A program made the position numbers and the translations under genes. 64,000 nt of DNA from Eledone cirrhosa (lineage: Eukaryota): contig OZ024741.1 of assembly GCA_964016885.1 (NCBI GenBank), forward strand, positions 326,740,001 to 326,804,000, written 5' to 3'. Shown piece by piece: positions 12,076-59,508 of the stretch (positions are counted from its first letter, which is position 1; every line of letters starts with the position of its first letter). The notes under the pieces were generated by a model. It worked only from the letters and a program-made list of their open reading frames with translations, was not told the DNA's origin and searched no databases.

Positions 12076-12210
12076 GGTACCTATTGATAAGCACAGAAAA
12101 TTGATTATTTCACTTTTATACCATCGTGTGCGAAACCTATTTTGATTTTGAGGTTCAGATTGATCTGCGGAAAAGGTTTGAATTTTGAAATTTAAATTTG
12201 TCTAGGTACC
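12076..12210 (+). ncRNA. Type I hammerhead ribozyme, U3-A8 core variant
   Basis: GGTACCTA-TTGATAA-GCACA...TGTGC-GAAA-C...long G.U-rich stem...G-TC-TAGGTACC. 8-bp helix I and 5-bp helix II. GUC site predicted after 12202. Confidence 0.8.
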
Positions 12211-12633
12211 ACGGCTATTTGCCAATATGAGTTTGTGTATATTGATTTATTATTTTTTAAATCGATACAGGCAGGCTATATTTATTTAAATTAGTTTACT
12301 TTATTCTAGCTATCTTTTGTCTTTTAAAATACAAACACTTAGGTGTTTATCATATATTAATTTATATTAACTTGTATTGCACAGCTCAGAAATGCTTCTT
12401 TCTTTGAGCTAATTAATTGTAAATGACTCTTTGAGTGTATACTCTAAATATAATATATTACTGCTCCCTCGGTTGAGCTAATTTTTAATCCCATATAAAC
12501 GGCTGTTATTTCTAGCGCCATGTGTATGAGATAGGCTAGTGAGCTGGAAGAACCGAGTGCAAAACCTCGTGAGTTTTTGCTAGCAAACCAGACCTTCAAA
12601 ATTTTTTCGAAGTGAAGTAACCTAATTTTTCTG

Positions 12634-12751
12634 GGTACCTATTGATAAGCACAGAAAATTGATTATTTCACTTTTATACCATTGTTTGCGAAACCTATAT
12701 TGATTTTGAAGATCAGGTTTGAATTTTGAAATTTAAATTTGTCTAGGTACT
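12634..12751 (+). ncRNA. Hammerhead ribozyme (U3-A8), unit 2
   Basis: Same fold. TTGATAA at 12642, GAAA at 12690, GTC at 12741-12743. Apical deletion in helix III. Confidence 0.75.
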
Positions 12752-13172
12752 ACGGCTATTTGCCAATATGAGTTTGTCTATATTGATTTATTATTTTTTA
12801 AATCGATACAGGCAGGCTATATTTATTTAATTAGTTTGTTTCATTCTAGCTAACTTTTGACTTTTACAATACAAGCACTTAGGTGTTTATAATATATTAA
12901 TTTATATTAACTTGTATTGCACGGCTCAGAAATGCTCTTTCTTTGAGCTAATTAATTGTAAATGACTCTTTGAGTATATACTCTAAATATAATATATTAC
13001 TGCTACCTCCGTTGAGCTAATTTTTAATCCCATATAAAAGGCTGTTATTTCTAGCGAAATGAGTATGAGATAGGCTATTGAGCTGGAAGAACCGAGTGCA
13101 AAACCTCGTTCGTTTGTGCTCGTAGACCAGACCTTCAACATTTTTTCTAGGTGAAGTAACCTAATTTTTCTG

Positions 13173-13306
13173 GGTACCTAGTATAAGCACAGAAAATTGA
13201 TTATTTCACTTTTATACCATCGTTTGCGAAACCTATTTTGATTTTGAGGTTCAGATTGTTCTGGGGAAAAGGTTTTAATTTTGAAATTTAAATTTGTCTA
13301 GGTACC
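13173..13306 (+). ncRNA. Hammerhead ribozyme, unit 3 (core damaged)
   Basis: Same helices, but the core reads GTATAA instead of TTGATAA. Confidence 0.6.
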
Positions 13307-13633
13307 ACGGCTATTTGCCAATATGAGTTTGTGTGTATTGATTTATTATTTTTTAAATCGATACAGGCAGGCTATATTTATTTAAATTAGTTTGTTTCAT
13401 TCTAGCTAACTTTTGTCTTTTACAATACAAACACTTAGGTGTTTATCATATATTAATTTATATTAACTTGTATTGTATATATATATATATATATATATAT
13501 ATATATATATATATATGTAAATATACATATGTGTGCGTGAGCGCGCGTGTCTGTCTGTCTGTCTTTGTCAGTGAGTCTATGTGACGAATGCGAGTCGTTT
13601 GAATTTATTTGATTGTGTTTTGTAGAAATGTGT

Positions 13634-55974: not shown

Positions 55975-56060
55975 ATGTATGTATGTATGTATGTATGTAT
56001 GTATGTATGTATGTATGTATGTATGTATGTATGTATGTATGTATGTATGTATGTATGTAT
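55975..56060. repeat. (TATG)n microsatellite
   Basis: Directly visible. Confidence 0.95.
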
Positions 56061-56089
56061 CTATGTATATATATATATGCAATATAAAT

Positions 56090-58970
56090 GACAAAGAGTG
56101 TTTAAACTGTCAAACATTTAATCATTGGCGATTGTTTTATCCTAGCACAAGGCCGGATTCATCAGAGTTGATAACAAAAATCAAAGAAATATGAGATCAA
56201 AACTTTGTCACAAGAACATTAGGAGGATACATAATATGGGAGGTTAGATAAACATAAGCATCAAAATTTATATAAGGTAACTGAGGCAGAAAGAACTTGA
56301 AAAATAGGAACAGATAAATGCAATAAAATTAAAAGAAAACAAAAAGAAACATGCTATTACAGATAAGTTAAGTACAGTGAAACTCTTGCAATTCAAATAT
56401 AAATTTTAAAATATATCTCCAAAACATATTAAAAAAAAGAACATTAAAAAATAGATTAAAAAAACATTTCAAAATGTTTAGATGCACGTGTAGCATAGCC
56501 AGGGATTACAGAAAGGTGAAACACTATAAGCTCCACTACATAATTCAGTCATAATAATAATTACTTTTCAAAACGTCCAAAGGAGCTAATGTAATATTGA
56601 GTAAATAAATACAAACATCAAAGTAAACAATTCCAATACAGATGGAAGTATTATCAGTTAGGTACTCAAGACACCTCATCTAAACCACGATATATTTGAA
56701 TAAAAATATCCAGGGCTACTGATTGCAAAACTAAAGAACTTTAAAAGAATAATAAATTTACAAATTACAGAGAAAGAAATTATACTAAACATGTTAAGCA
56801 ATATTAAAGGATAAAGAATTTTCTAAGTTAATTTTACTAGTATTGAATAGTTAATATTAGATAAAAATAGAGGGTGAGGCAATGGTTTTTATGAAATTAT
56901 TAGCCAAAAATAAATATAAGCGAGGCTTGTCAGATAAGGTCTGTAAATAATGTATTATTAAGTGGCCTAGGGCGGTGGATTGGCAGTATCGGTAGAGGGT
57001 CGGACGCCATGCTTTCCAGCATAGTTACGTCCCTTTACGATCTGAGTTCAAATCCCGCCGAGGTTGAATTTGCCTTTCATCCTTACGGGGTCGATAAAAT
57101 AAAGTACCAGTAATGCACTGGGTAATTGCTGGCCTTGTGCCTAAAGTAGAAACAATTATTAAGTGGCTTAAATGTGATGTGGTGGTTATAATAAAATGTA
57201 GCGGTAATAGAAGGGATCAGAGAGGGGGTGCAAAGAATGGTAGACACTATATAGTAGTTAAATATATTATAAACATTTAGATTTAAAAGTGCAATTAAAT
57301 AATTATTATACAGTGATACTAATGGAACTACAAAAAAAAAAGGTATATATCTACATTGCTATAAATTATTTAATATGTCTAAAATAGTGAAAAGATTAAT
57401 ATGAGGACAAGTGGAAAAGATTTCAGATATCCTATTTGATAAATTTAGTTTAGATTAAATAATCATATGCGACTCCAGAAGGCAAAGGTTACACATTTTT
57501 AATAGGATGTTTATAGGATGAAGTTTTGGCACTGACCTTCAAGGTAAGGGTATCAAAAATGATATAAAACTAGATAATGAAGTCGCATGCTTAAACTTAG
57601 AGTTGTTGAAAGTATTAATATGGGAATTATACCTCGTCTTAAGTGGCACCAATATAGATTTTGGAGCTTATGGAAGTGGTGATAGTACAGGAATAAACAG
57701 TATTCTTAACGAGGCAATTTCCATTAAGAGGGCATACATTATTAAGTCTACAATTACAGTTATGGTTATTGATTAAGCAGTTTTGTGGGTAAAGATGTGA
57801 AGAGTTATTACAGATAGATATATGAGTGCTGCAATTACTATTAATATTCCTATAAGTCCTAGATATTAATGTATTATGAGAGTGGTTACTAGTATTATTA
57901 GGTGCAATATTGTTAAACGTATCTGCTGATTGTCAATTGTTATTTAAGTTACAATAAGTAACATAGTTATTAATTTTCCTATGATTACTATGCGCTATGT
58001 GATTAGCAATGTCAGGTGTAGTTGAATAATAGATTTTAATGGTATTTCTATTAATTAAATTATGGTATTTGTGATTAGTGGGATTTTTTTTCTCAATAAT
58101 AGAGAAGAATACTCTAGGTGTATTAGTAGATATATTTAAGTTGGAAGGTGGATTAAAATATGAATTAAGCCTTATATGATTTTTATTTTTGTTACTAATA
58201 AGTGTATTATTAAAGTGATTAGGATTAAAACAATTTTGATTATTACCTTCAGTTTAACATTATAGATGTTTGGTTTAGTGTTATTACTATGCTTTTTATT
58301 CAAAATATTTGTTTTTATCATTAAGATGTTTTTGTTATAGAGAAAATGGTCATTAGTGCTATGGGGAATTTTAGAAGGGTGCGTGTCATTATTTAAACTA
58401 ATGTTTCCATTAATTATATTATTATCATCTTTATTAGTTTGTATATTTCTGGATCTTTTCATAGCCATATTGTGTGAAATAATATTAGGTTGTTTATTGT
58501 AGTAAGCAAACGAGTTTTCAGGCATAAACTTAATTTCTTTTTTATAGCCTGAATGTCATAAAACTTCATTATAATAATGAGCATTATGGTTAAAAATAGA
58601 TTCATTATAGGATAAATTACTAATTCTATTAGATACATCTTTAATAATTGAATTTAAGAGAAATCTCGAGTGGTTAGGGTGGTTAGAATTGGTATCAACA
58701 TAAAAATGTTTTTCACTAGGTTTATGGTAAGGTGTAAAGGTATTCGTATCTAAGCATAGGGTAACGTCAAGGAAATTAACAGTTTTGGTGTTTTTTATCC
58801 AAAGTAATACTTAGGTTTAAACTTTTGAATAATTTATCCTAGTTCTTTCAATATTATATTTTTTATAATCGAAAATGAATAATGCATCATCACGATATAA
58901 TCCATCTTTCAGATATGGTAATATTTTATGTATATCGTTTAAAGGATATAAGCCAACTCAATGAGTGACA
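56090..58970 (-). mobile_element. Old AT-rich Hydra-like PLE with a decayed HHR (56105-56169) and a nested SINE
   Basis: Minus strand has GLYRDDA (~58882-58903), VNFLDVTL (~58758-58781) and PYHKP. HHR reads AACT-CTGATGA-ATCC..GGAT-AAAA-CAA..TTG-AC-AGTT. Confidence 0.65.
56970..57160 (+). mobile_element. Full-length tRNA-derived SINE (family 1) with probable TSD
   Basis: Box A and box B present. ATTATTAAGTGGC occurs on both sides (~56954 and ~57155). Confidence 0.88.
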
Positions 58971-59433
58971 ATCGTAAGGTTGTGATTTCGATTCCCGACG
59001 GGGTGATGCGTTATGTCCTTGTGCCAGAAATGTTATTTCACGTAGCTCCTTCTACCTGGAGTTGCAACTGATAGATAGTACAGTCCGATTTTGCGAAAGT
59101 CGATCTACTATCTATCTATCTATATATATATCTATATATATATATATATATATATATATATATATATATATATATATATACATATATGAAATTAAAAGAA
59201 ATGGAGTTAGAGACTCACATTAATCCCCTATAATTTAATGAGCTCAATGCATAGATACTGGGCTATTTATAAGACAGCATATAGAGAAAAACACACAAGG
59301 GACCTTATTTTAAATAAAGGGGATATAATACGACCAGAGTAAAAAATCATATTATCAACGAACGGAATGAAAAATACATAAAAATTAAAACGATAAATTA
59401 ACATGTATAGACCATTTGTTTTATAACTATATC

Positions 59434-59508
59434 TCCTGGAAACGTTCTCAGCATGTTTAGTCACGACAAAAAGTGTAGAAACAAACCACCGAGGACTTAT
59501 CAACAGGA
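59434..59508 (-). ncRNA. Decayed U3-A8 hammerhead in a ~460 bp non-coding segment between microsatellites
   Basis: Minus strand: TCCTG-TTGATAA-GTC...GAC-TAAA-CATG...CGTT-TC-CAGGA. Confidence 0.5.

Follow-up and report, generated by a model that had tools for sequence, protein, structure and literature searches.

Hammerhead ribozymes in which a U3-A8 pair takes the place of C3-G8 in the core have been described before. Perreault et al. (2011; PMC3088659) documented natural covariation from C3-G8 to U3-A8 in several hammerheads, and found U3-A8 to be active in vitro and a U10.1·U11.1 mismatch to be tolerated; the passages of that paper covered here do not place these natural examples in animal retroelements. 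In Schistosoma mansoni, Cercyon Penelope-like elements (PLEs) carry U3-A8 minimal hammerheads (Cervera and De la Peña 2014; PMC4209133), and the sections covered report that such motifs escaped a first descriptor (~1,300 U3-A8 hits versus ~2,000). By our own count, UUGANAA makes up 2 of the 56 representatives in the alignment of that paper, and UUGAAGA 1 of 56. For PLEs of the Hydra clade, the covered part of Craig et al. (2021; PMC8557442) places hammerheads close to the element's 3' end, for example at position 2403 of 2507 in Hydra-1_oBim. Non-LTR retrozymes, as far as the covered parts of two papers describe them (PMC7229834; bioRxiv 10.64898/2026.07.22.740005), are AT-rich non-coding tandems in which every unit carries a single type I hammerhead, the units measuring 150-450 nt (Cervera and De la Peña 2020; PMC7229834). 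When one type III hammerhead was mutagenized pairwise (PMC9901934), the 3-8 pair was rescued only by a G-C swap and other 3-8 double mutants had low activity, so U3-A8 may be near-inactive in some backgrounds.

The variant and the undercounting that it causes are already published, so neither will surprise a specialist, and the families described here are new examples. Among the matches listed in a search for prior literature on Octopus hammerhead ribozymes, none concerned U3-A8 by title, and a search on the literal core strings returned nothing relevant. We analyzed a 64-kb stretch of Eledone cirrhosa DNA (the window; 34% GC), in which a sequence-only reading had proposed a recurrent compensatory U3-A8 core, TTGANAA, in five unrelated families. 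With a probability of roughly 80%, we consider the supported sites to be type I hammerheads in PLE terminal repeats and in a non-coding tandem derivative, with a U3-A8 core in two families, A and B. The surrounding genome is crowded with (TA)n-inserted PLEs.

These two families share with the Schistosoma Cercyon hammerheads, as presented in the covered sections of PMC4209133, the core change, the escape from standard descriptors, and PLEs as the element class. Unlike those minimal hammerheads, families A and B and a single U3·G8 site at 51150 have helix II domains of 41-79 nt and a closed helix III, and families A and B have no extra base after A9. All three are probably monomer-folding, which sets them apart from minimal hammerheads.

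Results

All eight motifs listed by the sequence-only reading were present with the positions and strands given for them. Whole-window heptamer counts were 87 for TTGANAA, 28 for CTGANGA, and 36 for TTGANGA. After microsatellite masking, the window was put through 200 block-wise dinucleotide shuffles; these contained 67.5 ± 8.4 copies of TTGANAA on average, and 2 of the 200 contained at least 87, which makes most of its occurrences background. Sites were scored with a purpose-made type I hammerhead descriptor (helix I, core, helix II, GAAA, helix III, and UH, combined in a weighted pair score), whose thresholds and bulge options were set post hoc, with the candidates already known. Four of the 87 U3-A8 sites (12084, 12642, 23865, and 20868) scored at least 30, against a shuffle mean of 0.02, and none of the 200 shuffles yielded four U3-A8 folds at that level. 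Helix support above shuffled controls, the comparison that had been set in advance as a refutation test for the motif, therefore holds for these four sites. They represent two families with near-identical copies.

Among the other cores, 5 of 28 C3-G8 sites reached a score of at least 30, while none of 94 sites with the alternative pairs G3-C8, A3-U8, or G3·U8 did, and of 46 sites with a mismatched C3·A8 core in the window, 0 had helix support. Of ten mismatched control cores searched in the real sequence, four gave one fold apiece at 31-33 (4/413 sites) and none reached 36, so a lone score near 30 is not decisive. The sites 23865 (score 42), 51150 (38), and 12084 (36) outscored every control core, and under the permissive scorer, 42 was attained by 0 of 7,939 shuffled sites. 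The type I box order (N3-UGA-N7-N8-A9, GAAA, UH) was present at 12084, 12642, 23865, 20868, and 51150. At the level of sequence, positions 3 and 8 are complementary as U-A in families A and B and as a U·G wobble at 51150, and in all three the three helices that close the core exceed chance. Focused Rfam scans gave no hammerhead match at family A, at family B, or at a C3-G8 control region (42890-43670); in the whole window, no hammerhead appeared among the 150 of 315 matches listed, which were microRNA-like hits on repeats and palindromes. Candidates from a relaxed scan at 41240, 25995, 63402, 57436, 28819, 30316, 5873, and 34626 were dropped as single, defective, or within coding sequence.

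Repeat families were defined by masked self-BLAST of the window. Family A has the following features:

20780..20873, minus strand: family A hammerhead, inverted copy, core at 20868-20862 (score 32)
21210..22745, plus strand: PLE open reading frame (ORF), 5'-truncated, with RT and C-terminal GIY-YIG region, Hydra clade (ESM Atlas, linker motif)
23522..24045, plus strand: pLTR, the element's 3' terminal repeat, ending at a (TA)n array ~97 nt past the predicted scissile bond
23860..23953, plus strand: family A type I hammerhead, TTGAGAA core at 23865 (score 42, the top of 153 sites)

In the 23865 copy, G12 lies at 23926 and cleavage is predicted 3' of C17 at 23948 (GUC). Helix I of the family comprises 5 bp, with a further 4-6 bp beyond an internal loop. 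The unconstrained minimum-energy fold of this copy is the hammerhead fold, and in the 20868 copy, where a single change weakens helix II, the hammerhead fold lies 2.8 kcal/mol above the minimum. The fold z-scores (-0.7 and 0.0) are unremarkable. The two copies sit in repeats that are 98.9% identical, 20778-21212 being an inverted copy of 23522-23955. In helix III, the rows vary between G·U and G-C (4 versus 3 rows) with pairing kept; two-sided covariation was found at 0 of 6 helix III pairs, a count not above the shuffle control.

The hammerhead lies downstream of the ORF with RT plus GIY-YIG, on the same strand. The ESM Atlas clusters closest to this ORF bear HTH_animal, RVT_1, and GIY-YIG, at 0.95-0.98. 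Pfam gave no domain match on the family A ORF protein, and on nine of its homologs it gave a single weak RVT_1 match. The ORF (21210-22742) contains the CxCX5C linker, which is common to 113 of 120 homologs; DKT (88 of 120 homologs) and RWK (76 of 120) are missing from it because of the 5' truncation, and a related copy at 38325-40902 has all three motifs. Domain order and motifs, judged by Hydra-clade diagnostics taken from the covered part of PMC8557442, place the element in the Hydra clade of PLEs rather than with a Naiad or Nematis type. Direct and inverted repeats flank the ORF, with a tail and a (TA)n insertion, a layout of direct plus inverted repeats that the same part of that paper describes for PLEs. 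Seven family A anchors were found, of which three end 40 nt past G12, three at 120 nt, and one at 129 nt. These ends match the two-site signature of PLE tails and fit with unprocessed RNA being used, both as described in PMC11167929.

The PLEs here resemble the Hydra-clade elements of PMC8557442, in its covered part, in the RWK, DKT, and CxCX5C diagnostics, the (TA)n targets, the 3'-end hammerhead, and the closed helix III; a mismatch at the base of helix II, frequent in Hydra-clade hammerheads, recurs here as well. The Hydra rows of File S2 of that paper have C3-G8 and a short helix II in 26 of 26 cases, and family A differs from them in its U3-A8 pair, its 54-nt helix II domain, and its ~1.3-kb 3' region.

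Family B is a tandem repeat:

11674..13463, plus strand: roughly three ~550-nt units in tandem, with 91-94% identity (masked self-BLAST)
12076..12210, plus strand: hammerhead copy 1, TTGATAA core at 12084 (score 36)
12634..12751, plus strand: hammerhead copy 2, core at 12642 (score 32)
13173..13306, plus strand: copy 3, core broken by a substitution and a one-base deletion, absent from the sequence-only reading

A blastx search of family B against 127 PLE proteins was empty, and no ORF is linked to it. Copy 1 has an 8-bp helix I, G12 at 12132, C17 at 12202 (GUC), and a helix III that bears a long hairpin; its hammerhead fold lies 1.4 kcal/mol above the minimum, with a z-score of -3.3. Copy 2 has lost 17 nt from the helix III extension, its helix II is weaker, and its hammerhead fold lies 6.8 kcal/mol above the minimum. 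The proximal part of helix III is 2 bp, and two of the three copies are weakened or broken. Two of the three units, adjacent and non-coding, have intact cores, as in a retrozyme tandem. Family B resembles the non-LTR retrozymes, as covered in the papers cited above, in being an AT-rich non-coding tandem in which each unit has its own type I hammerhead, and departs from them in its long helices II and III and its U3-A8 core. Its unit also exceeds the 150-450 nt of PMC7229834, so we class it only as retrozyme-like or as a pLTR array.

The U3-G8 form listed by the sequence-only reading proved to be a strong hammerhead fold:

51145..51280, plus strand: type I hammerhead, wobble core TTGATGA at 51150, single copy (score 38)

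The basal pair of helix II (10.1-11.1) is A·A, and C17 lies at 51275 (GUC). The hammerhead fold is the minimum-energy fold, with a z-score of -3.2.

Three further sites that had been counted as U3-A8 families were weaker:

38325..40902, plus strand: Hydra-clade PLE, frameshifted, with RWK, DKT, and CxCX5C, upstream of the 41061 remnant
41056..41095, plus strand: decayed hammerhead-like remnant, A9 missing (score 17, background level)
53348..53383, minus strand: probable decayed minimal hammerhead, TTGAAAA, within the fold-back 53367-53479
59433..59509, minus strand: doubtful site; by eye, helix I spans 6 bp and helix II 3 bp

Under the permissive scorer, 53380, 41061, and 59503 scored 20, 17, and 18, levels at which shuffled windows yield ~6, 14, and 11 sites, respectively. 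The 53380 site has a 5-bp helix II, GGAA replacing GAAA, a CCGG palindrome, UA, and a helix I of just 3 bp. It alone fits the minimal hammerhead pattern, which families A and B and 51150 fail with their closed, long helix III. A compact pattern with palindromic helix III also matches it alone, and 27 of 300 shuffles give a match too. The 105 nt downstream of it are 85% like an inverted tail (19863-19967) that adjoins a truncated Neptune-like GIY-YIG ORF. It is probably a decayed copy of a minimal hammerhead, one that is not significant by itself. This doubtful site combines U3 with A17, counter to the 3-17 pattern described below. The 41061 remnant lies ~160 nt past the Hydra-clade ORF; its 3-8 pair is untypable, and by eye a C3 reading gives a better helix I. 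At 59503, TAAA replaces GAAA and helix III is missing, and the relaxed descriptor found no fold. With scores no better than shuffles, 41061 and 59503 were dropped as evidence for U3-A8.

The proposed five U3-A8 families thus reduce to two solid ones and one that is probably decayed, the other two being unsupported. That the five loci are unrelated stands, as no BLASTN match was found among their 400-nt contexts apart from (TA)n. The term "compensatory" is apt relative to the general consensus, and goes too far within families: a switch between C-G and U-A at 3-8 was not seen among the copies of any family in the window.

Hammerheads with C3-G8 were also found and served as comparators:

37302..37346, plus strand: C3-G8 hammerhead, comparator family 1 (score 30)
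38227..38297, plus strand: C3-G8 hammerhead, comparator family 2 (score 48)
42951..43520, minus strand: comparator family 3, two tandem C3-G8 hammerheads, cores at 43515 and 43029, 486 nt apart
43994..44626, minus strand: comparator family 4, tandem C3-G8 pair, cores at 44622 and 44069, 553 nt apart (score 33 each)
51836..52603: comparator family 5, three minimal C3-G8 hammerheads (52018 plus, 52567 plus, 51872 minus; scores 25-27)

The 43029 copy of family 3 has GGAA. The base of helix II is C·A in family 4 and U·U in family 5, two of whose three members lie within the fold-back 51697-52192. The window holds 13 credible folds with an intact GAAA, 8 with C3-G8, 4 with U3-A8, and 1 with U3·G8, a tally that leaves out weak single matches at 5873 and 34626 (score 25). 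A search limited to CUGANGA would miss 5 of these 13, in line with the undercounting that had been predicted. The accompanying claim that the variant is common in this genome has one 64-kb window as its basis, in which C3-G8 families (five) outnumber those with U3-A8.

The nucleotide at position 17 differed between the core types. C17 (GUC) was used by all three families with an intact U3 and by none of the five C3-G8 families, of which four have A17 and one U17.

Discussion

From the motifs, helices, family structure, PLE context, and fixed end points, we infer a course of events for transcription, cleavage, its rate, and the mutational path. U3-A8 would keep Watson-Crick geometry in families A and B, and 51150 would hold the U3·G8 wobble. 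The path probably consisted of a C3-to-U and a G8-to-A transition, with the wobble as the intermediate. The change would have become fixed in each family's founder, in an AT-rich genome, with later copying of the element carrying it along. By analogy with PLEs and retrozymes, slow or protein-assisted cleavage 3' of GUC would probably cut transcripts, whether read-through or tandem, down to unit length, and circularization may follow. Family A copies end ~17 or ~97 nt past the scissile bond, which implies that the RT template was uncleaved or religated there, and in that case a moderately weakened core would be tolerated.

One alternative holds that U3-A8 is a selected catalytic tuning or partner specification instead of a neutral exchange, for example, a slower core that spares RNA for reverse transcription. 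The folds around the intact U3 cores are indeed long and stable, GUC is used in all three families, and reverse transcription has to cross the cleavage site. However, the monomer of the C3-G8 family at 43515 is equally stable, the Schistosoma U3-A8 motifs in the covered sections of PMC4209133 are minimal hammerheads, and the pattern is judged on three families only; we regard such tuning as unlikely. An extended form of this idea couples the core type to the rest of the ribozyme, so that the avoidance of A17 by U3 and the long, monomer-competent folds would together be a tuned-down setting that spares PLE RNA for RT. C3 has been presumed to pair with G17 (PMC3884650), and we propose that U3 avoids A17 because the two could pair. 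This coupling is speculative, and we hold it to be doubtful.

It is rather improbable that the U3-A8 cores are dead or near-dead descendants of C3-G8, produced by AT-biased erosion and carried along because PLE transposition needs no cleavage. Insertion by an anole PLE in vitro was unaffected by hammerhead catalytic mutants (PMC11167929), the low activity of double mutants other than G-C (PMC9901934) points the same way, and at 34% GC the window contains frequent decayed copies (13181, 43029, and 53380). Yet positions 3 and 8 are both changed in A and in B, with U4-G5-A6, A9, GAAA, G10.1-C11.1, and GUC kept intact, and helix-supported C3·A8 cores are absent (0/46). Family A is also young rather than an old decayed copy, as its ORF is open across 511 aa and its repeats are 98.9% identical. 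That all TTGANAA cores are chance matches beside hairpins in AT-rich, palindrome-rich DNA is very improbable: with 87 occurrences and four mismatched-core folds at 31-33, chance fully suffices for 59503 and possibly for 41061, but 23865, 51150, and 12084 lie above every control core, 42 was never reached in shuffles, and family A sits exactly at the expected PLE hammerhead position.

Conclusions

Under the preferred reading, type I hammerheads in PLE repeats and a tandem derivative, families A and B and the 51150 site are natural, probably monomer-folding substrates in which the cost of U3-A8 and U3·G8 could be measured in native context, and that cost bears on the role of hammerheads for PLEs. 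Ribozyme censuses of PLE-rich animal genomes should allow Y3-R8 cores and long helices. If the coupling between positions 3 and 17 were general, it would be a covariation rule so far unrecognized, and U3-A8 forms with long helices may lie hidden in PLE clades described as lacking hammerheads, such as the Naiads, for which searches were partly based on CUGANGA.

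Core motifs and helix support

All eight core motifs reported by the sequence-only reading are present at the positions it gave. The U3-A8 core heptamer TTGANAA occurs 87 times, compared with 67.5 +/- 8.4 expected (200 shuffles of the masked window). Most heptamers are therefore background, which leaves helix support as the real question. Support was scored with our own type I hammerhead ribozyme descriptor, refined after the candidates had been seen. With an intact GAAA box, 4 of 87 U3-A8 sites scored at least 30 (shuffle mean 0.02; 0/200 shuffles reached four), as did 5 of 28 C3-G8 sites and 1 of 36 U3·G8 sites, while none of the 94 G3-C8, A3-U8 or G3·U8 sites in the window reached 30 with this descriptor. 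Ten mismatched control cores (413 sites) yielded four folds scoring 31-33, with no score of 36 or above; shuffling is therefore a somewhat lenient null, and the copies at 42, 38 and 36 are the only ones to clear all controls. Helix support beyond shuffles thus held for four sites, not for the heptamer generally.

Repeat landscape

At 34% GC, the window abounds in (TA)n arrays and is crowded with pieces of retroelements, including several Penelope-like elements (PLEs; RVT_1 and GIY-YIG matches, tblastn map) and two LINE-like reverse transcriptase regions. Besides family A below, at least seven further PLE fragments were mapped. They belong to several clades: some are Hydra-like, others Neptune-like with CX2-5CxxC, and in one neither motif occurs.

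19949-20476, plus; 26247-26904, plus; 30645-31188, minus; 38325-40902, plus: PLE fragments
47472-49178, minus, with 49246-49596, plus: PLE fragment
57365-59101, minus; 62208-63793, minus: PLE fragments
2642-5243, plus: frameshifted LINE-like element, endonuclease/exonuclease and RVT_1 matches
14022-17009, plus: frameshifted LINE-like element, RVT_1 match
11088-11278, 17881-18073, 34687-34788, 35913-36314, 56971-57161: dispersed ~185-200 nt SINE-like repeat, 76-99% identity, one tandem pair, possibly resembling a cephalopod SINE
7833-9144, plus: frameshifted ORFs without a Pfam match, which by eye we take to be Helitron Rep/helicase fragment-like
24404-24927, 25111-25280: two long inverted repeats with imperfect arms, set between microsatellites; MITE-like, or remnants of fold-backs

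Intact U3 families

Family A comprises U3-A8 hammerheads in the terminal repeat of a Hydra-clade PLE.

23865, plus; 20868, minus: U3-A8 hammerheads
21210-22745: truncated PLE ORF
2503-2700, 24073-24270, 37589-37777: short fold-back insertions, apex inside helix II

One hammerhead lies in the direct 3' repeat and the other in a 98.9% inverted copy at the truncated ORF's 5' junction. The fold is a complete type I: helix I of 5 bp, extended across an internal loop, core TTGAGAA, a 54-nt helix II domain closed by G10.1-C11.1, GAAA, helix III of 5-6 bp and GUC. It is the predicted unconstrained minimum-energy structure, with an energy ordinary against shuffles (z -0.7). The ORF had 1,258 homologs among 8,000 scored candidates; its nearest ESM Atlas clusters (RVT_1, GIY-YIG, HTH_animal) are eukaryotic, with Mollusca commonest from very few records. 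It carries a CxCX5C linker, and related copies within the window carry RWK and DKT, features described as diagnostic for the Hydra clade in PMC8557442.

The short insertions have no 3-8 core and are therefore uninformative on that pair. Their apexes (2635, 24133, 37643) fall within helix II of the hammerhead, 15-23 nt before G12 (the G of the GAAA box), and these insertions suggest cDNA snap-back at the helix II hairpin. The arms extend past G12 by 40 nt when inverted and by 120 nt when direct; across seven anchors, family A end points fall at 40 nt (three), 120 nt (three) and 129 nt (one). They match the tail signature with two sites that PMC11167929 outlines for PLE reverse transcription, and they mean that the RNA template ran uninterrupted through the cleavage site.

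11674-13463: family B array, about three tandem ~550-nt units, intact cores 12084 and 12642
51150: U3·G8 hammerhead, single copy, A·A at the helix II base, proximal helix III of 5 bp, GUC

Each family B unit has a helix I of 8 bp, a 41-nt helix II domain, GUC and a helix III of 2 proximal bp continuing into a long hairpin. In copy 1 the hammerhead is predicted to lie at most 1.4 kcal/mol from the minimum (z -3.3); copy 2 is weaker, at 6.8 kcal/mol above the minimum, and the core of copy 3 is broken. A search for a coding match in family B found none. The array is likened to a non-LTR retrozyme or a PLE terminal repeat array, although its unit exceeds the 150-450 nt given for non-LTR retrozymes in PMC7229834. 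At its 5' edge, 11591-11655 is an inverted 62-65 nt piece of the unit, resembling 5' inversions of PLE insertions.

The fold at 51150 is strong, with the hammerhead as predicted minimum-energy structure (z -3.2). With one copy to go by, its U3 could be shared by a family or be a mutation private to this locus.

Weak sites

The proposed five unrelated U3-A8 families are five loci without mutual sequence similarity, but 41061 and 59503 fail and 53380 is probably decayed, with GGAA. A permissive scorer places 53380, 41061 and 59503 at ranks 16, 23 and 19 of 153 sites, their scores being matched by 4.6%, 10% and 8% of 7,939 shuffled sites. At 53380, all 5 bp of helix II are paired and a CCGG palindrome is present, but the box reads GGAA and helix I has only 3 bp. 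No other site fits a compact palindromic pattern, which 27 of 300 shuffles also produce. Site 53380 is 146 nt away from (TA)n (15% of positions drawn at random fall within 200 nt), and its tail is similar to the inverted tail adjoining a Neptune-like ORF. This site is probably a real but decayed hammerhead. Because 41061 occupies the expected 3' hammerhead position of the Hydra-clade element 38325-40902, it is probably a hammerhead remnant; it requires at least two lesions, and helix I by eye is 4 bp as C3 and 2 bp as U3, so the site does not count as evidence for U3-A8. Site 59503, lacking G12 and helix III, was rejected.

C3-G8 comparators

37307; 38235; 43515/43029; 44622/44069; 52018/52567/51872: cores of five C3-G8 families
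42891-43670 (486-nt unit), 43827-44850 (553-nt unit): retrozyme-like tandem dimers, one C3-G8 hammerhead per unit, no coding match found on search
51697-52192: near-perfect palindrome of 496 nt, flanked on both sides by (TA)n arrays, minimal C3-G8 hammerhead on either arm
52499-52735: third, single-arm copy of this palindrome family

With these five families, U3-A8 accounts for two of the eight intact families, or three of nine when 53380 is counted, a share that a single 64-kb window cannot extend to the genome, for which the variant had been called common. The expected undercount by CUGANGA-only searches was borne out, 5 of 13 intact folds in the window being missed. GUC occurs in 3/3 intact U3 families versus 0/5 C3-G8 families, which use GUA, CUA, AUA or GUU; the pattern is post hoc, worked out by hand at about 1 in 56, and weaker with 53380 included.

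The helix II base is mismatched in three families, 51150 (A·A), 52018/52567/51872 (U·U) and 44069/44622 (C·A), as in many of the published Hydra-clade hammerheads listed. Separately, 32789-32892 (minus strand, core 32834, CTGATTA) has good helices (score 33) within an inverted repeat and may be a C3-G8 hammerhead whose G8 has mutated.

Discussion

The analysis shows the sequence, predicted folds and context of the hammerheads and the end points of the copies; the U3-A8 observation is partly confirmed and its interpretation partly supported. C3-G8 pairs in the active hammerhead (PMC3884650), and U3-A8 covariants occur naturally in ribozymes active in vitro (PMC3088659). Cleavage by PLE hammerheads is slow and frequently involves dimers or help from proteins. 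For the anole PLE it was not needed for insertion in vitro (PMC11167929). Probably C3 changed to U and G8 to A, passing through a U·G wobble, and both transitions became fixed in family founders; U3-A8 would be tolerated because the element requires only slow cleavage. Against this, pairwise mutagenesis of one hammerhead rescued the 3-8 pair only by a G-C swap (PMC9901934), so activity of the U3-A8 sites cannot be assumed.

The same variant in PLE repeats was already described in PMC4209133, which states that the initial descriptor missed U3-A8 and gives ~1,300 U3-A8 matches alongside ~2,000 others in S. mansoni; among its 56 alignment representatives we counted two UUGANAA and one UUGAAGA. 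Published Hydra-clade hammerheads are C3-G8 in all 26 rows listed, whereas family A is U3-A8. A literature search, covering subscription papers in part, found no prior report of U3-A8 in a Hydra-clade element or long-helix animal forms. Rfam gave no hammerhead match at families A and B, nor at a C3-G8 control. The U3-A8 sites here are further members of an already published type, and the association of GUC with U3 is the single lead worth pursuing.
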